Positions 3,285 to 64,000 of a stretch of DNA of 64,000 bases are shown one piece after another. The first letter of the stretch is position 1. Each line of letters begins with the position of its first letter. The notes below the pieces were generated by a model, which saw only the letters and a program-made list of their open reading frames with translations, was not told the DNA's origin and made no database searches. Made by a program: the position numbers and the translations under genes. The DNA comes from a virus (Duplodnaviria > Caudoviricetes), in IMG/VR virus record IMGVR_UViG_3300038345_000144. One strand, given 5' to 3'.

Positions 3285-4933
3285 TTGTTGTTATCCACCT
3301 CTTTCATAGCAATATAGATGAGACCCTCGGTATAGTCCATACCCTTAATCTCATCCTTATACTTCGCATATTCTTCAGGAATACTATCATAGTCAAAGCC
3401 ACACTGGATAGCCCACTCAATCAATAATTTCAGAGCAGGGTTTTCCTGTATTGCCTTAATGCCTTTTTCAAGAGAATAATAATAATCCAAGTCCTCGGAG
3501 TTAGTAGATACCACAAGTTTCTGTACTGTTTTAAGGTTTTTTATAGCCACCTCATCGGTGACTCTCTTCTTACTCTCTTCGGCTTTTGCTTTTACTTTTA
3601 CAGGGTCAAGTGCCATATTACTGCTCCTTTTCTTCCCAATGTGTAGGCTGGTCAAATGTAATCCAACCGTCTATGTAGTCTAAATAACCATTCTCGCAAC
3701 CCTCACAAGTCTGGCTATTTTCATACTTACAGTTATAACAATCTTTGATATTATCACACATATATATTATCACCTTTTCATAGTCGCACCGCAACGACAA
3801 GTATTACTTAACTGGGAAACATCTTCTACACTGACTGCCCTACCACAAAAAGAACACCTAAACCAGTCCTTATATACGCCCTGATTACGCTCTCTCTTCC
3901 ACTTTGCAACGGTTCCCTTTGGTGCTTCAGGACAACTAACGAAATTAGCATTTTCCTTACACTCCAAACAAGGTTCTTTCAAATCTACACCGTAATATCG
4001 GCAATCCTCACACTTCATAGTCAGTCTCCTTATACTAATGTTAAGTTGTCCTTCTTGTATAACGCATAACCAAATGGCATAGGCGACCAAGACTTGATTT
4101 CGTCGGCATAGTCTAATTCTACACCTGCATCTTCAGGGTCAACCCAACACCACTTGTCTTTATGGTCGTTTGTACTGTTCTTGGGTAAGAAAGTCCACCT
4201 TGCCATACTTACTACATTTCCCTCGACAGGGTTAATGGGAATAGTAACAAGATAAAGACCTGCCTCTTCAGGAGGTCTTACTGAACAGAGCGTCCACTGG
4301 AGAACTTCCTTTTCGTTACCAACTGCCAAACATTCTTTCTTCTTTTGCTTCAGGTATTCTTCTCTCTGCTTCGCCCATTTAAGATATTCTTCTTCAGTTA
4401 CCTGCTTACGAACAGTTCCGCAACCGACACAAACCAACTCATAAGTTGAGTAGCCCGCCGCATCGGTGTGTTTTACCATCTTAAAATATTGGCACTTACA
4501 TTTTTTGCATACACCAGTCTTACTCATTATTTGCCTCTTTCGATGCTAATTCAATCTTGTTAAGTTCTTCTTCGACTTTTTCAATATAATCAACCGTAGG
4601 GTCATATCCTTCCTCAAGAAGAGCCAGTTCCCTTTTAGCCTGACGTTCAATCTGCCACTTATTGATAGTGTAAATCAACATATTGTTGGTGTTGCTTACT
4701 TCACCAATAAAAGCAGTCAACTTATCCTTGTCATAGTCGTAAGAATGAGAAATCCACTCATTCTCACACGCAATACAGGTAAACTTAAAGAACTTATTAT
4801 ATGAGTCAGACTCACACGGCACAATTTGAGGTAGCCAGTGTGAGTGTCCACATTTAGGGCAAACATATCCCTGTGATAAAGCCTTACGCTTCCTGTATGC
4901 TAACTTGTTCATTTCATCTTCCATTTTTTACTC

Positions 4934-32300: not shown

Positions 32301-33454
32301 GCTACACTTGTGCCTGCAAAAAGAAACGCTAAAACAACTGAAGGAGTTATATAAAGCAGATGAGCAAACGAAAGAGTAGTTATGAGCGTTGGAAGGAGCG
32401 TCAGAAAAACGCTTCCCCCTATGCAAATCAAGCCGTTTGTAGTAAATGCAGAAATTGTGAATGGGTGAGAACACACGCATATTGCAGTGGTTTTGGCAAG
32501 GCTACAAGATTGCCCTCTGACACTTACTGGAGCCTAAAACCAGGATATTGTACGCAATTTTATCCTAAAGGAAATACCGAAGGTTTAGGATTTATTATTG
32601 GTAAAGGAGACACAACAAATGAGTGACATTGAACAGAAAATTATCGGAAAATCCGTTAAAAGTGCCTGCATTGACGGGTATGAAGTAACTATTGAGTTTA
32701 CAGATGGAACGGTATTTAAGTATGAAGCCTCCGACGGAGGTTATTCTTCTTATAGTTTTAATGAGGTAAGATAAGATGAAGAGAGATATTAGACTTATAG
32801 ATATTGTTGCTATACTCTCTCCAAGACATTCCTATTGTGTAAGAATTAACGGAGAAGCACTCAAAGATTATCTGCGTAGAGATGAATTAACTTATGGTAT
32901 GTTACAGATGTATGTAGCGAAAATCGGTAGTTGTTATCATCTTAACGAAGACCATCTTGTACTTGATTTAGTAACCCGTGATAATTCTTTGGAGGGATAA
33001 TATAATGGATAATGAAAACGATAAGGAACAGGAGTGTTCAGGCAACTGCGACACTTGCCCTAATAAAACATTTGATAGCGACAGTGCTTACGAGTTTATT
33101 TGTAATAAATACGGTTGGGTAGTTTAATGAAAAACAATTGTAGTGAATGTGTGCATCATTATAAAGATTTAGGCTATTTGCCAGAAGAGTGCTGTGTTTG
33201 TTATATTGACGAAGACGGCTATCATTCAGAGTTCGTTCAGATAGATAGAGAAAAGTGTGCTACCTGTCGAAAGAACGCAATAGAGGTATGTGCAAATGGC
33301 GTACCTGATTGTGAGCGTGGTCTCCCGTGTTCACCAACCCCTACCCGTGAAGAATATGACAAAATGATAGATACTACTCTTAATCTTATAAGAGAGATAA
33401 GAGAAATGGTTAATAATAAACCAGAATAATGAGTTACCCAGTTAATCCTAACTC

Positions 33455-54610: not shown

Positions 54611-54770
54611 CAAACGCCCTCCGAACTCGGAGAAATGAAAACTAAATAGTTTCCGTTGGCGAGAAGATAGAGAAACCCCCATAAAGAGAAACCCCCATAA
54701 ATGAGGAAAACAGGTTCAGCAACCCTTACAGATTGAGTCTGTATGAAATACCCCCTGTTATGTAGGGAAC
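54611..54770 (-). CRISPR. degenerate type I-E-like mini-array 2 (3 repeats, 2 spacers, one 16-bp internal duplication)
   Basis: GTTCCCTACATAACAGGGGGTATTTCA, GTTTTCCTCATTTATGGGGGTTTCTC, CATTTCTCCGAGTTCGGAGG; spacers of 32 and 31 nt. Confidence 0.7.
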
Positions 54771-55010
54771 TTACCAATAAAGATTATAACAATCCTTATA
54801 ATCACAATCTGGGTCAGAAGAGTAAACTACCATAACCTCATACCCAAGTCGTTTTAACTCTTTTTTAGTAGCCTCACTTCTGATAGTGATTTTCTGTACG
54901 GTATTTTCACCTCTTGCGATAGCCCGCTTAATTGCACCTTCGACACATTCTATTTCGCTTTGAGCCTTTGTCAATTCAGTCATTTCCTTTGCAGTTTTAG
55001 CGTCAATCAT
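54771..55010 (-). CDS. hypothetical protein (paralog-like of 34210..34446)
   Basis: MI.AK.A.E...L..LGY.V......Y...W in both. Confidence 0.7.
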   Translation of the reverse strand: MIDAKTAKEMTELTKAQSEIECVEGAIKRAIARGENTVQKITIRSEATKKELKRLGYEVMVVYSSDPDCDYKDCYNLYW

Positions 55011-59070: not shown

Positions 59071-59924
59071 ATATGCTCCTTAATCTCCTTTAGGCTCATT
59101 ACATCAGACATTCCGCACTTACTACACTTACAAAAGTAATTGCCTTCATCCTTAAAGGTATATGCAGGCTTCTTCATTACTATATTTCCTATTTTATAAG
59201 GAAACGGGTGCTTAATAAGTCCCTTACGGATTGCGTCAAACCTGTTATGTTCTGATATGTAGCCGTCCTCGAACTGAACGGTCATATTATCGTATTTATC
59301 ACTTGCGATAATGGTCATCATCATACCATTAGCCGACATATACTTCTCTCCAGTTCTATTCTTAATCTGACAGTAACTATGAGAGTATTGAGGGTGTCTT
59401 ATTTCGCCTTTAAGAAAGTTGAAGTAAGAACGATGCTGAACTACCACTCCGTCCTCGAACTTTACATCAATATCGGTAGAAGTCCTATACTCAATAATGG
59501 TCATTATTAAGCCATTAGAGGCTTTATGAGACTCTCCAAGTCGGCGGTTTTTGAAGTAGTTAGGGTTCTTCAATCTGCCCTTTTGAAAGTTCACATATTT
59601 TGTATGACGAACAATTGTTCCGTCTGCAAATTGCACATCAACATCTTCACAACCACGATAACCAATTATAGTAACCTGCTCACCATAATATGAGGTATTA
59701 GTTTCTCCGATACGCTTTGTATTAGGTATCTGGCTACGATTAGCCGTAGGTCTGTTAGGATGTCCGATTTTGCCCTTCTTAAAAGCACAGTAATACTTAT
59801 GCTTAACCACAACTCCATCTTCGAACTGAATGGTTAAGTCTTCCGAACTCTCACCACCAATAATAGTCATCATCATACCATTATTGGCTCTGTTCTTTTC
59901 GCCTAAATGAATTGCACTTACCAT
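59046..59924 (-). CDS. repeat protein 1: four repeats + C-terminal Zn site
   Basis: manual alignment; ends YFCKCSKCG..D...KEIKEHIC. Confidence 0.85.
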   Translation of the reverse strand: MVSAIHLGEKNRANNGMMMTIIGGESSEDLTIQFEDGVVVKHKYYCAFKKGKIGHPNRPTANRSQIPNTKRIGETNTSYYGEQVTIIGYRGCEDVDVQFADGTIVRHTKYVNFQKGRLKNPNYFKNRRLGESHKASNGLIMTIIEYRTSTDIDVKFEDGVVVQHRSYFNFLKGEIRHPQYSHSYCQIKNRTGEKYMSANGMMMTIIASDKYDNMTVQFEDGYISEHNRFDAIRKGLIKHPFPYKIGNIVMKKPAYTFKDEGNYFCKCSKCGMSDVMSLKEIKEHICLSDLRR

Positions 59925-61534
59925 TACTTAACACCCATTACATCAAGAACTGCCTGTACTGCTACATTCTTTGCACGACAGAACGGTGGAAGTGGTACGG
60001 CTTTTGGTGCTTTCTGTGCCAAGATATAATCTCTGGTCATAATACGGCAGTCACCACCCTTTTCAACCCAACGCTCCCACGCTCTACGACACGGGATAGC
60101 CTCGATTTCAGCCACCGCCTTACCAATAAACTCTCGGTAAGTAGCCTCGTTTCCAGTAGCGATAAGGTTGAGGTCATCATAGTAGAGTTGGTTAATGTTA
60201 TACAAACTACCACTCTTTGGTGTCCTCTTCTTGTGTTTTGCAATAATTTGCTTCAACTCGACAAGCCTATCAGTTTCTTCCTGTGTAAGTTTTACAGGAT
60301 TTCCTGCTTTATTCTTGGAGTTCTGCTTCTTTACTAAAGCCTTATATTCTTCGAGGATAGCGTCAGGCACACCACTTTCATCTTCCTTGTTGGAAACGAA
60401 CATAGTGTACTTTGACTTTCTATGCACATTATCTACTACATCGAATACAATCTTTGGTCTTGCGTCACCTGTGGATAATGCTCTACCCAACTGCTGTGCA
60501 TATACAGTATTTGAGTATGTTGAACGGTACATAATGATACCTGTTAGGTTGTCAACGTGATAACCCATATTAAGCATTTCACACGAATAAATAAGGTCGA
60601 TTGTTTTGTCCTTACTCTTCAATTTACAGAGTTTCTTGACATTCTTTGCATATTCAGTTGTTTCTGAAGATACGATAGTCTCCCTAATCTTGTGTTTAGG
60701 ATATGCCGTAGCAAACCAACGCCTTACCGCCCTCTGCTTATCCTTCATATGTGCAAAGTTAGAGAAGAAGACGATATACTTCTGGTAATTTGTCTTGATT
60801 TTAGCGGTCTTGAGAGCCATCTTGATATTGACATCCATACGGTTAAGGTTAGCCAACTCAATCATCTTACCATTGAGAAGTTCTCTGGCGTAGCCCTCAT
60901 CTTCCTCATCTACATCAACCTTGAGCATAATATCCTTCTTGATATTAGACACAACATTAGGGTCTGATGAGTCAAAATCACAATAGCAATAGTATGGCTT
61001 CTTAATGATACCATCCTGAATAGCATCGTGGAGAGTGTACTTTGATGTTGTAATATCGTTAAAGAACATCGCAGTAACATCAATCATATCCATTCTATCA
61101 GGGGTAGCAGAAGCACCAAGTAACTTTGCTTTCTTATTATCATTAAGGATAGAACGCAAACCGTCCATTGTCTCTGGAGCACCAATTCTGTGATACTCGT
61201 CGCAAATGATAAGGTCTGTTCCCTTAATTGCTTCCATATCCTTTTCTGTAAGTTGTGTAACCTTCTGATAGGTCATAAATGTTACATCAGGGATATAACT
61301 GTTCATCAACAGTTTGTAGTCCTTTCCATAATAGAAATTGAATACAGCCTGTTTTACAACATCTGTCGGATATAGGTATAAAATCTTTTTATAATGTCCA
61401 CTCTTGATAAACTTTGTAAGAATACCAGTCTTTCCAAAACCAGTAGGTCTTATGATGGCACACTTCTTCTTTTTGTCAAGAAGTTTCAATGCCTCTTCAT
61501 AAGTTTCCTTTCTTAAGCGGTCTATTTTCTTCAT
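59924..61534 (-). CDS. superfamily 2 DExH helicase/ATPase (ResIII-like)
   Basis: PTGFGKT, DEYH, SAT, LNMGYHV, QQLGRAL; no nuclease domain recognised. Confidence 0.9.
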   Translation of the reverse strand: MKKIDRLRKETYEEALKLLDKKKKCAIIRPTGFGKTGILTKFIKSGHYKKILYLYPTDVVKQAVFNFYYGKDYKLLMNSYIPDVTFMTYQKVTQLTEKDMEAIKGTDLIICDEYHRIGAPETMDGLRSILNDNKKAKLLGASATPDRMDMIDVTAMFFNDITTSKYTLHDAIQDGIIKKPYYCYCDFDSSDPNVVSNIKKDIMLKVDVDEEDEGYARELLNGKMIELANLNRMDVNIKMALKTAKIKTNYQKYIVFFSNFAHMKDKQRAVRRWFATAYPKHKIRETIVSSETTEYAKNVKKLCKLKSKDKTIDLIYSCEMLNMGYHVDNLTGIIMYRSTYSNTVYAQQLGRALSTGDARPKIVFDVVDNVHRKSKYTMFVSNKEDESGVPDAILEEYKALVKKQNSKNKAGNPVKLTQEETDRLVELKQIIAKHKKRTPKSGSLYNINQLYYDDLNLIATGNEATYREFIGKAVAEIEAIPCRRAWERWVEKGGDCRIMTRDYILAQKAPKAVPLPPFCRAKNVAVQAVLDVMGVK

Positions 61535-61568: not shown

Positions 61569-61597
61569 ATTATATTATAATAGTCAGCATTTGTAAA
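61569..61597 (-). promoter_or_regulatory. promoter of helicase operon TTTACA-N17-TATAAT, abutting the last repeat
   Basis: TTTACA 61597-61592, TATAAT 61574-61569. Confidence 0.7.
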
Positions 61598-62022
61598 GGA
61601 ACCTCCGAAAGTCGGAGAGATTTACCGTCTGCGATTACCGAGCCGTCCCTCATTGAATAACCTCCGAACTCGGAGACAATAACACTTAAACTTATAAGAC
61701 TGTGTACCCCTTGAGAAAAACCTCCGAACTCGGAGAAGTATCGTTGGAACTGCATATCCGTGTGACGATTTGTGATAAACCCCCGTAAATACGAGGAAAA
61801 CTTGCAGGTTTAATTGTTGCCTCCTGCCCCATAGAATAACCCCCGTAAACGAGGAACCAAAAGGTAGCACTGCCCGTCAAGCTATACGAGTGAGAAACCT
61901 CCAATTTGGAGAAAAAGTTGCCTCTTGTTTATACTTATGCTAAACCTCCGACACGGAGAATACTGGTTAATCACTGATAGAAAATTTCCAGCATTGAAAA
62001 ACCTCCAAACCTGGAGAAACAC
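61597..62022 (-). CRISPR. degenerate type I-E-like CRISPR-like array 1 (8 repeats, 7 spacers), no cas genes in window
   Basis: hairpin repeats (approx. GTNTTCYYC-loop-GGRGGTTWWTCA) at 57-60-bp period (one 47); spacers 31,21,31,31,32,33,31 nt. Confidence 0.8.
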
Positions 62023-62034
62023 TTTATTTACTAT

Positions 62035-62064
62035 ATGATACCAAGTTGAATGATTTTTTGTAAA
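62035..62064 (-). promoter_or_regulatory. dedicated promoter of array 1, TTTACA-N18-TATCAT with TG extension
   Basis: predicted start lies a few nt before the first repeat. Confidence 0.7.
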
Positions 62065-62069
62065 TAGCC

Positions 62070-62107
62070 AAAAAGAAAAACTCCCTCTAATCGAAATTAG
62101 AAGGAGT
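62070..62107 (-). terminator. intrinsic terminator after topoisomerase gene
   Basis: actccctctaat-cgaa-attagaaggagt stem followed by TTTTTCTTTTT on minus strand. Confidence 0.75.
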
Positions 62108-62147
62108 CTTTCCTAATGAAAGGTATAAAAATGAAGAAACGCTCGCT

Positions 62148-64000
62148 TTATTTTCCGTGTACTTCAGTAATTTGTTCACCCTTTTTGAGTTTGAGAACTA
62201 CCTTACCACTGGCACTTCTACCCGCCTGAACATTCTGACCAACAGCGTCAATAGTGACAGTTCTCTGGTTAGTGGTAATCTCGATGTTCTCGTCCTCTTT
62301 GAGTAACTTAACAGCGATAACCTCGTCACCAGCAACCTTTAAGCCACATACCGTTGTACCGATAGCCTTACTAATCTTCAAGCAATTATCGACAGGCATC
62401 TTCTTACCAACACCAGTCTTGGTAACAAAGTAGATATAAGGCAAGTCAACATCTTCGGAATAGATAGCAATTACCTTTTCGTTCTTACCGATTTCAGGTC
62501 TCAAATCAGAGATATTGTTACCCGAAGCGGCAGGCATTACTACATCAATAGTATTTGACTTAATCTTATACATATTACCGAGGTTAGTAACCATAGTTAC
62601 ATACTGGTTGCCCTCAACTGTAATAAACTTACTGTCTTCGTCAGTAGACCTAAACTTTGTAGGGTCAACTCTCTTGAGTGTCTGTGCTTCTGTAAGAACG
62701 ACCTTGAATATCTTTTTAGGCTTTGCGACCTTTGGCTTTGTAACAGCAACTCTAATATCCTGCATTTCAATATCTTCGAGTTGTGTTTTTCTTTCCCAGC
62801 CGTACTTATCAACAAGAGCATTAAATTGCTTAACGAATAACTTTGTACGAGCCTTTTCGTCGTTAATCAACTTCTCGTCTTCAGCCTTCTGCTTCTCCAA
62901 AGAGTCCTTTTCGTCATTCAACTTCTGCTTTTCGAGGTTAGCAAGTTTACCGAGTTGTGTAGTTACGATAGCCTCTGCCTGTACTTCTGTGAAGTGGAGA
63001 GCCTTACCGTTCTTACCCTTAAAGGCTTTCTTAACGATTGCCTGCTTTGCATCTTCGGAAGACTTGGAGGATTTGATTGTCTTGATAATCTCGTCAATTA
63101 CATCTAAAGCGGAAAGCAAACCATAGAGGACTTCCAATCTGTGATTAACTTTATCAAGGTCATATTGAGCCTCTTTAACAATAATCTCCAAGTTCTTTCT
63201 TACAAAATATTCGATATACTTCGGAAGTGTGATAGTTTCTGGCTGACCACTCTCACCGATAGCAATATGAAGGTCGGTAATGTTGATTTGAAGAGGTGTT
63301 TTTCTATAAAGAAGTTCTCTTACATATTCAGCAGTACCCTCTTGACACATAATTTCAATCAAGAAGCCGTTTCTATCACAACGGTCTGCCATATCAACAA
63401 TCGGCACATTATCCGTAGTCTCTACGAGTTTCTTAACCTTCTCTCGATAATCTTTAGGGAAGTAGCCGTAAGGGAGTGAATAAATCTTGATAGTGTCACC
63501 TTCAATTTCGGTTTCACCTCTTAATCTGATTGTACCCTTACCAGTCTCATAAATACTGGCTAACTCTGACTTGTTGATGATGATACCACCCGTAGGGAAG
63601 TCAGGGAAAACCTTTGTGCAATCAACCTTACCAGTCTTGATAAAGTTCAAAATCTGGTCTCTTATCTCGAAAAGGTTAGAACTTGACCAAGTAGCCTTGA
63701 TACCATAACCCATTCCTAACTCATTTGTCATAAAGAGTAATGGAAGTTTAGCAACCCAATCCTGCAAGATAGGTTCAGGACACTCCTCGGAATAGTTCTT
63801 ACCCATATGCAAGATGTTTGTGTTATAGAACAACGCATCCTCAAGCACTTCTGCCATTCTGATTTCTGTATATCTCTGATTTGATACTTCAGGACCACCA
63901 ATCAAGGAGCCGTAACCACCGTGACCGTCAAGAAGCGGTACAGGATATACGAAATCTTGAGCCATACGAGCCATAACACCATATGCTCCTGCGTGAGGGT
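62148..64000 (-). CDS. gyrA: type IIA topoisomerase subunit A (GyrA/ParC-like), 5' end outside window
   Basis: PH...Y..MARMAQDF, PLLDGHG..GS, RYTE active-site Tyr, PDFPTGG, C-terminal beta-pinwheel-like repeats; frame open to the window edge. Confidence 0.9.
   Translation of the reverse strand, partial: PHAGAYGVMARMAQDFVYPVPLLDGHGGYGSLIGGPEVSNQRYTEIRMAEVLEDALFYNTNILHMGKNYSEECPEPILQDWVAKLPLLFMTNELGMGYGIKATWSSSNLFEIRDQILNFIKTGKVDCTKVFPDFPTGGIIINKSELASIYETGKGTIRLRGETEIEGDTIKIYSLPYGYFPKDYREKVKKLVETTDNVPIVDMADRCDRNGFLIEIMCQEGTAEYVRELLYRKTPLQINITDLHIAIGESGQPETITLPKYIEYFVRKNLEIIVKEAQYDLDKVNHRLEVLYGLLSALDVIDEIIKTIKSSKSSEDAKQAIVKKAFKGKNGKALHFTEVQAEAIVTTQLGKLANLEKQKLNDEKDSLEKQKAEDEKLINDEKARTKLFVKQFNALVDKYGWERKTQLEDIEMQDIRVAVTKPKVAKPKKIFKVVLTEAQTLKRVDPTKFRSTDEDSKFITVEGNQYVTMVTNLGNMYKIKSNTIDVVMPAASGNNISDLRPEIGKNEKVIAIYSEDVDLPYIYFVTKTGVGKKMPVDNCLKISKAIGTTVCGLKVAGDEVIAVKLLKEDENIEITTNQRTVTIDAVGQNVQAGRSASGKVVLKLKKGEQITEVHGK

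Follow-up and report, generated by a model that had tools for sequence, protein, structure and literature searches.

Candidate CRISPR guide arrays with diverged, covarying repeats in a huge ruminant-gut phage that encodes a type I-E interference module

The largest non-coding gap in a 64,000-nucleotide (nt) stretch of viral DNA (IMG/VR record IMGVR_UViG_3300038345_000144; Duplodnaviria, Caudoviricetes; the whole stretch is called the window here) separates a topoisomerase gene from a helicase gene among dense small genes (134 mechanically chosen open reading frames, ORFs). This gap holds a row of hairpin repeats, all different from one another and separated by unique spacers, and so raises the question of which machinery could read them. 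An earlier note on this DNA had described an array of guide RNAs with the geometry of type I-E CRISPR (short palindromic repeats, clustered and regularly interspaced), encoded without cas genes. We analyzed the array, its relatives and its strain variants, and consider it probable that the row is one of several dispersed CRISPR RNA (crRNA) arrays of a phage-encoded, adaptation-less type I-E system. The DNA comes from a huge ruminant-gut phage; the stretch was present in bovine and sheep gut sequencing runs of 15 studies, and relatives of its helicase were found on metagenomic contigs of 50–500 kb.

Anatomy and folding of the array

The array consists of eight repeats of 25–28 nt on the minus strand (62020–61595), interleaved with seven unique spacers (Table 1). 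The unit periods are 58, 47, 57, 58, 61, 60 and 58 nt, that is, 57–61 nt apart from a single 47. All eight repeats were located where the earlier note had put them; the short spacer S2, which it gave as 21 nt, measures 22 nt, and its unit is probably a damaged one. Each repeat follows the same plan, with a short T-rich lead, a stem YCYCN/NGRGG with a closing U·G pair, a loop of 3–6 nt and the tail GTTnnTCW. With the closing U·G pair counted in the stem, the tail after each stem is 7–8 nt long, (G)TTnnTCW, and it is degenerate in the terminal repeat. No two of the eight repeats are identical, pairwise identities ranging from 0.50 to 0.81, which supports the expectation that identity-based CRISPR finders would miss the array. 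Compared with a type I-E array, all eight units present a stable 3' stem-loop followed by a handle of about 8 nt (degenerate in the last), and the spacers are unique, about 32–33 nt long and regularly placed near the 61-nt period, with one 22-nt spacer and one 47-nt period; the near-identical repeats of such arrays are not found here. The description as a guide-RNA array with type I-E geometry (a hairpin, a tail near 8 nt and spacers near 32 nt in length) held up.

Folded separately, the single units form hairpins of 6–7 base pairs with energies from -5.6 to -8.7 kcal/mol. The stems of R4 and R5 contain U·G pairs and are much less stable when folded as plus-strand sequence (Table 1), which supports the minus strand as the transcribed one, as the earlier note had concluded from the G-U pairs. 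The fold of the whole 441-nt transcript pairs the arms of different repeats with one another and was uninformative (z -2.2). Conservation of the stem was examined in 37 distinct units from four phage lineages, where every stem pairs despite the differences in sequence (183 of 183 stem cells, 100%). Double-sided changes occurred in three of the five stem pairs: they were counted in 24 cells, where shuffles gave 6.5 ± 2.7 and none of 500 reached the observed number. This somewhat overstates the case, since hairpin shape guided the choice of units and the model guided their alignment. The stems thus covary through compensatory changes, as had been claimed from the window alone.

Fourteen units of 29 nt served to build a covariance model, which was run against both strands of the window, a scan that the earlier note had proposed. 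It matched all eight repeats, with E values from about 1e-9 to 0.11 (the weakest being R2). In the remaining 63.5 kb it recovered only a second, smaller array of the same family (54618–54775) and a few weak matches with E values of at least 0.007. The middle repeat of this second array holds a 16-nt internal duplication (TTATGGGGGTTTCTCT twice). A model and motif match at 32722–32747 on the plus strand is solitary and lies inside a small ORF, and was taken as chance. No Rfam family was found in the window at gathering thresholds, nor any transfer RNA (tRNA).

Type I-E interference genes on the phage molecule that carries the array

Among the 107 ORFs of at least 80 amino acids in the 64-kb window, no cas gene was found by Pfam or PADLOC. 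The helicase product (exact) and the Cas5e of a sister contig, L052 (exact), were used as look-ups to reach a longer contig of the same phage, SRR1725612_2579 (logan; 184,946 bp); an exact look-up with L052 Cas6e did not retrieve it. This contig carries the exact helicase of the window and an identical eight-repeat array at about 92.8–93.2 kb in the same orientation, and, on the same strand at 141.0–143.5 kb, the genes cas7e-cas5e-cas6e-cas3. One phage molecule therefore holds both the array and, about 48 kb away, a type I-E interference module. On L052 the operon is complete (cse1-cse2-cas7e-cas5e-cas6e-cas3), with all six products above Pfam cut-offs; its Cas6e aligns to Thermobifida fusca Cse3 of the Cascade structure 5U07, and 103 of 103 sampled words of its Cas7e (P0175) were found in the window's own genome, 43.7 kb past the window. 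The earlier description as cas-less is true of the window itself and does not extend to the phage, whose genome holds cognate cas genes that do not adjoin the array.

Neither cas1 nor cas2 was found within 10 kb on either side of the L052 Cas7e gene, a range that takes in the entire operon and no less than 6 kb of sequence on both of its sides. The Cas3 of this lineage has 800 amino acids and no N-terminal Cas2-like domain. Directly upstream of the cas operon (L052:5865–7772) lies a gene for a 635-amino-acid protein with faint radical-SAM matches and an intein (PF14890) with a LAGLIDADG domain.

The association of this repeat family with type I-E genes is closer in G002, a complete, terminally redundant 467-kb IMG/VR phage with the same kind of array. 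A two-repeat DNA pattern search of IMG/VR led to G002, and a Cas6e scan of G002 led to its operon; other matches of the pattern search (L011–L015) turned out to be coding repeats. The G002 operon comprises cse1-cse2-cas7e-cas5e-cas6e, an array of five repeats with variable stems, and a cas2-cas3 fusion, all products but Cse2 lying above Pfam cut-offs. The array between cas6e and cas2-cas3 was matched by the window-type covariance model at 35.8 bits, and the model found further units at at least five other G002 loci. No Cas1 was found in this complete genome; the cas1-cas2 pair of type I-E loci was not found in the L052 operon region, nor an AT-rich leader in the roughly 10 nt between the -10 box of the array and R1. 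The Cas2-like domain of the G002 Cas3 (L049:10272–12983) is N-terminal (PF09707, E 2e-8); a Cas2-Cas3 fusion is likewise a feature of type I-F. Relatives of the G002 Cas7e with 48% identity or more fall into about 63 clusters and lie on contigs of up to 532 kb, and bacterial Cas7e proteins are only 22–26% identical; the phage-type proteins form a group of their own, a separate phage lineage of type I-E.

Units of the family also occur at other positions in related phages. Three contigs with 67% helicase identity (L003–L005:9120–9460) have no array at the topoisomerase-helicase gap. Their array of this family, with six repeats and small differences among the three, is found some 3.5 kb downstream of the helicase gene, or about 5 kb from where that gene begins. 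In a relative with 60% helicase identity (L007:5600–7100), about 1.5 kb without a called gene follows the helicase, in which a different hairpin repeat (GTTTGGTAGRTTCT...ATCACCAAAG) occurs four times alongside tRNA-like sequence; this may be an RNA island or another family of guides. A 10-kb contig binned in a Tenericutes metagenome-assembled genome (MAG) carries a two-spacer array of the family on the minus strand (L022:4900–5500), with a tRNA-like gene and long non-coding sequence beside it, and probably comes from a huge phage and not from a bacterium. Canonical arrays, whose identical repeats recur at a period of 61 nt and nearly match the phage repeat in sequence (TCTTCTCCGCGTGTCCGGAGGTTTTTC), are present in a chicken-gut Succinivibrionaceae MAG (Ca. 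Avisuccinivibrio); no Cas6e, Cas7e or Cas1, nor any other cas gene, was found in searches of this MAG.

The array is flanked by predicted regulatory sites (Table 1). A promoter-like site, with 10 of 12 matches in the promoter scan, would drive the array, and only about 10 nt separate its -10 box from R1, in agreement with the earlier claim of an own promoter and almost no leader. That claim also included a terminator insulating the array from the topoisomerase gene; a hairpin followed by a T run does lie there, and the terminator scan did not list it. No terminator was found between the array and the helicase gene, which has a promoter-like site of its own. Relatives without an array at the topoisomerase-helicase gap carry a single promoter-like site, of the helicase type. 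The topoisomerase gene is truncated by the end of the window, and its 703-amino-acid product is present in full on contig L053. Contigs from RNA libraries of two studies stop at 62141/62142, 6–7 nt beyond the topoisomerase stop codon, and DNA contigs continue; this hints weakly at a transcript end, or merely reflects strain divergence. In two RNA runs, contigs left the array uncovered, which speaks neither for nor against its transcription. The flanking genes had no blastn match in GenBank phages, and a helicase scan of IMG/VR returned no relative.

Table 1. Array elements and neighboring features of the window, in minus-strand order; bits are covariance-model scores and energies are those of single hairpins.
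Feature	Position	Strand	Description
Topoisomerase IV/gyrase subunit A-like gene, 3' part	62148–63974	-	Upstream of array; Pfam PF00521, E 2e-67
Terminator-like hairpin after topoisomerase gene	62075–62112	-	17-nt arms, 4-nt loop, then TTTTTCTTTTT; inverted repeat 88% complementary
Promoter-like site of array	62035–62064	-	TTTACA-18-TATCAT, TG before -10
Repeat R1	61995–62020	-	GTTTCTCCAGGTTTGGAGGTTTTTCA; 37.1 bits; -6.4 kcal/mol
Spacer S1	61963–61994	-	32 nt, ATG start; missing in strain L001
Repeat R2	61938–61962	-	TATTCTCCGTGTCGGAGGTTTAGCA; tail end GCA, not TCA; 15 bits; -6.4 kcal/mol
Spacer S2	61916–61937	-	22 nt only; missing in strain L001
Repeat R3	61891–61915	-	TTTTCTCCAAATTGGAGGTTTCTCA; 28 bits; -5.6 kcal/mol
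Spacer S3	61859–61890	-	32 nt; common to strain L001, first 26 nt identical
Repeat R4	61833–61858	-	GGTTCCTCGTTTACGGGGGTTATTCT; stem U·G pairs on minus strand only; 34.8 bits; -6.4 kcal/mol (plus strand -2.4)
Spacer S4	61801–61832	-	32 nt, ATG start; missing in L001; 60-nt unit skipped here in run X3
Repeat R5	61773–61800	-	TTTTCCTCGTATTTACGGGGGTTTATCA; 23.8 bits; -7.8 kcal/mol (plus strand -3.8)
Spacer S5	61740–61772	-	33 nt; common to L001, differing at positions 6 and 30
Repeat R6	61714–61739	-	ACTTCTCCGAGTTCGGAGGTTTTTCT; 35.2 bits; -8.7 kcal/mol
Spacer S6	61680–61713	-	34 nt; two other spacers in its place in L001
Repeat R7	61654–61679	-	TTGTCTCCGAGTTCGGAGGTTATTCA; 34.9 bits; -7.7 kcal/mol
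Spacer S7	61622–61653	-	32 nt, ATG start; common to L001, differing at positions 15, 25 and 30
Terminal repeat R8	61595–61621	-	ATCTCTCCGACTTTCGGAGGTTCCTTT; hairpin kept, degenerate tail merging into next promoter; 16.9 bits; -8.5 kcal/mol
Second promoter-like site	61569–61597	-	TTTACA-17-TATAAT; 11/12 matches; after last repeat, just before helicase gene
ResIII/DEAD-box helicase gene	59924–61534	-	Downstream of array; Pfam
Second, smaller array of same repeat family	54618–54775	-	Three repeats, two spacers, then terminator-like hairpin; model matches 54685–54713 (32.3 bits) and 54618–54632

Unit turnover between strains and the content of the spacers

Contigs with a 98% identical helicase (strain L001) have practically identical flanks and a different array. 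Three spacers (S3, S5 and S7) are common to both with few substitutions, S1, S2 and S4 are gone with hybrid repeats at the junctions, and the two spacers standing in place of S6 are flanked by repeats with a different loop. In two further DNA runs, contigs skip 118, 60 and 57 nt, and 101 nt are replaced by 41. Neighboring repeats tend to have a common loop and stem, as in R4/R5, R6/R7 and two repeats of L001. Strains with near-identical flanks thus differ unit by unit, so the array changes by whole repeat-spacer units. The earlier note had argued that such repeats are not maintained by acquisition, which fits the failure to find cas1 in the L052 region and in G002; its suggestion of a fixed guide set does not agree with the differences between strains. 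Turnover may proceed by recombination alone, or may also include acquisition via borrowed Cas1-Cas2. Given the canonical arrays of the Ca. Avisuccinivibrio MAG, whose repeat is nearly the same, one can conceive of a bacterial adaptation complex able to read such repeats.

The substitutions in the shared spacers S5 and S7 (against L001:3703–3735 and 3880–3911) are listed in Table 1. Those in the shared spacers fall mostly on every third position in frame 1 (five of seven, p about 0.045 by our own calculation), and this preference hints that spacers derive from or track coding sequence. Three of the shared-spacer substitutions also fall on every-sixth positions, which are unpaired by Cascade. 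In addition, three of the seven spacers (S1, S4 and S7; starts at 61994, 61832 and 61653) open with ATG exactly 7 nt past GGAGG, which is the ideal Shine-Dalgarno spacing; we calculate the chance of three such starts in seven at about 1e-4. One G002 spacer (L049:10100) also begins with ATG 7 nt past the GGAGG of its stem.

Translated, spacer S7 gives MRDGSVIADGK, and it is similar to a conserved stretch, NMRDGSVIAVGKGNPEWN, of metagenomic rtcB genes (L070:3477–3508 and L073). A scan of metagenomes with S7 gave 18 matches in several protein families, four of them in rtcB, the best at 27 of 32 nt. This likeness is not significant because the search pattern fixed 20 positions, only seven of the 12 others agree, and 18 tests were involved; the rtcB-like S7 is a weak lead only, and searches for an rtcB gene in the window, in G002 and in G003 were negative.

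Weighing the candidate mechanism and its meaning

The anatomy of the array and its co-occurrence with cas genes, combined with established knowledge of type I-E systems, suggest how the array could work. It would be transcribed from its own sigma-70-type promoter, and the phage Cas6e would bind each hairpin and cut at its 3' base. The resulting crRNAs, of about 57–61 nt, would begin with (G)UUnnUCW as a 7–8-nt 5' handle, continue through a spacer of about 32 nt and end in the next hairpin, which would supply the 3' handle. They would enter the phage Cascade (Cse1/Cas8e, Cse2/Cas11, Cas7e, Cas5e and Cas6e), which would recruit Cas3 to complementary DNA, of competing elements or of the host chromosome. 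Without repeat copying by Cas1-Cas2, every repeat would drift in sequence, and selection would preserve what Cas6e and Cascade read, namely the stem, via compensatory changes, and the GTTnnTC tail. Whole repeat-spacer units would be gained, lost or swapped, and the content of the array would change with them.

Several observations weigh against this reading. The array is linked to the distant cas genes by repeat type and co-occurrence alone. Repeats this heterogeneous, with two variable handle positions, are unusual for type I-E, in which Cas5e and Cas8e read the 5' handle, and the unit with the 22-nt spacer should not fit a standard Cascade. The excess of ATG starts, which is real, does not follow from this reading. 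Finally, no protospacer was found for any spacer in the window, the fetched loci (self matches only), GenBank phages, plasmids, IMG/VR or 401 sampled genomes. The spacer search proposed in the earlier note gave no full match in GenBank phages, plasmids and IMG/VR. The array as a whole had no match in plasmids and only short chance matches in GenBank phages; a 25-nt AT-rich match to LR756501 spans a spacer-repeat junction, and no array is present there. More permissive patterns were equally negative: IMG/VR held no match to S7, S5 and S3 with N at each sixth position, nor to codon-degenerate patterns of the S7, S5 and S4 peptides, and S7 with up to three mismatches had no match in the 401 genomes, which were sampled from the class of a Tenericutes MAG.

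The main alternative source of effectors is the host. As a viral mini-array directed against competing phages, or serving host gene repression, the array could have no phage partner and use a host type I-E Cascade, as the 64-kb window without a cas gene might suggest; the almost identical repeat and tail in the Ca. Avisuccinivibrio MAG mean that host Cas6e and Cascade could in principle read the units. We regard this as unlikely, since the phage has an interference module on the same contig, the G002 array sits inside an operon, and the MAG searches found no Cas6e, Cas7e or Cas1. Moreover, the repeats of known viral mini-arrays are exact copies of the host's (PMC11656645), whereas no two of the present eight are alike; instead of host-identical repeats without a viral effector, the phage combines heterogeneous repeats with an effector of its own. 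A host contribution is compatible with a phage-encoded system, for example through host Cas1-Cas2 adding spacers in trans. It is very unlikely that the repeats serve as an RNA anti-CRISPR, mimics that titrate host Cas6e or Cas7 and block host immunity. Many I-E-like repeats are spread across the genome, and solitary repeats of the Racr type are known in phages (PMC11656645), but regular, unique spacers of about 32 nt and a conserved unit length would be useless to a decoy, and the phage has its own cognate Cas proteins. Instead of one or a few repeats without functional spacers, as in Racr, the array has seven regular spacers, three of which are kept between strains. Because the phage encodes its own I-E module, and G002 has an array within the operon, the proposals of the earlier note (hijacking of host Cascade, an RNA decoy or a non-Cas effector) are no longer needed to explain the array.

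The ATG starts raise the different idea of translational control, with a GGAGG Shine-Dalgarno sequence held in each stem before a tiny ORF. Their ideal spacing in three of the seven spacers speaks for it; against it, a start codon is missing from four units, the S1 frame stays open for 7 codons only, the ORF of the S7 unit shifts frame after codon 11 in L001 (2-nt indel), the S4 unit is missing there, and the same repeat family stands inside a cas operon in G002. In our view the ATG ORFs are not protein-coding because they are not conserved between strains, and such control is highly improbable. Least probable of all is that the units are generic intergenic repeats or tandem terminator or attenuator hairpins with no guide role: the terminator scan does flag four units as a hairpin with a T-rich tail, but the strict period of about 58 nt with unique inserts, the conserved GTTnnTC tail, the covariation of stems in four lineages and the co-occurrence of units with I-E genes all argue otherwise.

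As a crRNA array of a phage-encoded type I-E system, the locus can be compared with known systems. Like bacterial type I-E systems (E. coli, Thermus, Thermobifida), it has cse1-cse2-cas7-cas5-cas6e and cas3, a 3' stem-loop, a tail near 8 nt in length, spacers of some 32 nt and units measuring about 58–61 nt; unlike them, the phage system has no cas1/cas2 that could be found, no leader, repeats that are 50–81% identical, a stem of 6–7 base pairs, cas3 in the last position and dispersed arrays. The type I-F system of Vibrio phage ICP1 is likewise a phage-encoded class 1 system serving the phage, and differs in having cas1 and active acquisition, adjoining arrays built of identical repeats, and PLE as a known target, whereas the array here is remote and its repeats are unlike. 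Viral mini-arrays and Racr, covered together with repeat decoys in a review (PMC11656645), are also virus-borne repeat-spacer units without adjoining cas genes, but they use host Cas proteins and the exact host repeat, whereas the present array has its own effector, seven spacers and heterogeneous repeats. In huge phages, according to the survey by Al-Shayeb et al. 2020 (PMC7162821), almost all CRISPR systems are without Cas1, Cas2 and Cas4, arrays are compact with a median of six repeats, and some spacers match host or phage genes. The present phage resembles those described there in its size (above 180 kb, with lineage contigs reaching 408 kb), its interference genes without cas1/cas2, its small arrays and the presumed use against competitors or host genes. 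The systems described in its text are of types II and V and an I-C variant (PMC7162821), whereas here an I-E lineage has arrays scattered tens of kb from cas and covarying, unlike repeats, and most of these arrays would escape finders that depend on repeat identity. Adaptation-less CRISPR in huge phages is thus already known, and the new part is a divergent I-E lineage with scattered, diverged and covarying repeats; we found no account in open-access papers and preprints of this lineage, of arrays tens of kb from cas, or of covarying repeats that are all different.

These features might be joined in a more speculative reading, which is possible and which we hold only tentatively. A lineage of huge gut phages, without acquisition genes of its own, would use many small, separately promoted arrays across the genome, whose repeats have diverged with the Cas6e hairpin kept since non-identical repeats resist recombinational loss; new guides would come by cassette exchange between co-infecting phages or from host Cas1-Cas2 in trans, and part of the guides would be directed against conserved host genes for shut-off rather than defense. 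The rtcB-like spacer S7 is a lead to such an aim, a statistically weak one. If this reading is true, the diverged repeats would be a natural counterpart of engineered non-repetitive guide arrays. Compact, divergent phage I-E proteins that tolerate varied repeats may be of interest for multiplexed guide arrays.

Collectively, the four phage lineages provide an example of what becomes of Cascade guides once Cas1-Cas2 copying ends: repeat identity falls to 50–81%, and the stem and a 5-of-7-nt tail motif held by selection offer a natural read-out of what Cas6e and Cascade need from a repeat. Identity-based array finders would undercount phage arrays of this kind, and with them the guide repertoires of phages. 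The guides are spread over many promoters rather than gathered in one array, which raises the question of how such arrays acquire new spacers. If the guides target host genes, CRISPR would be employed by these phages for host takeover.

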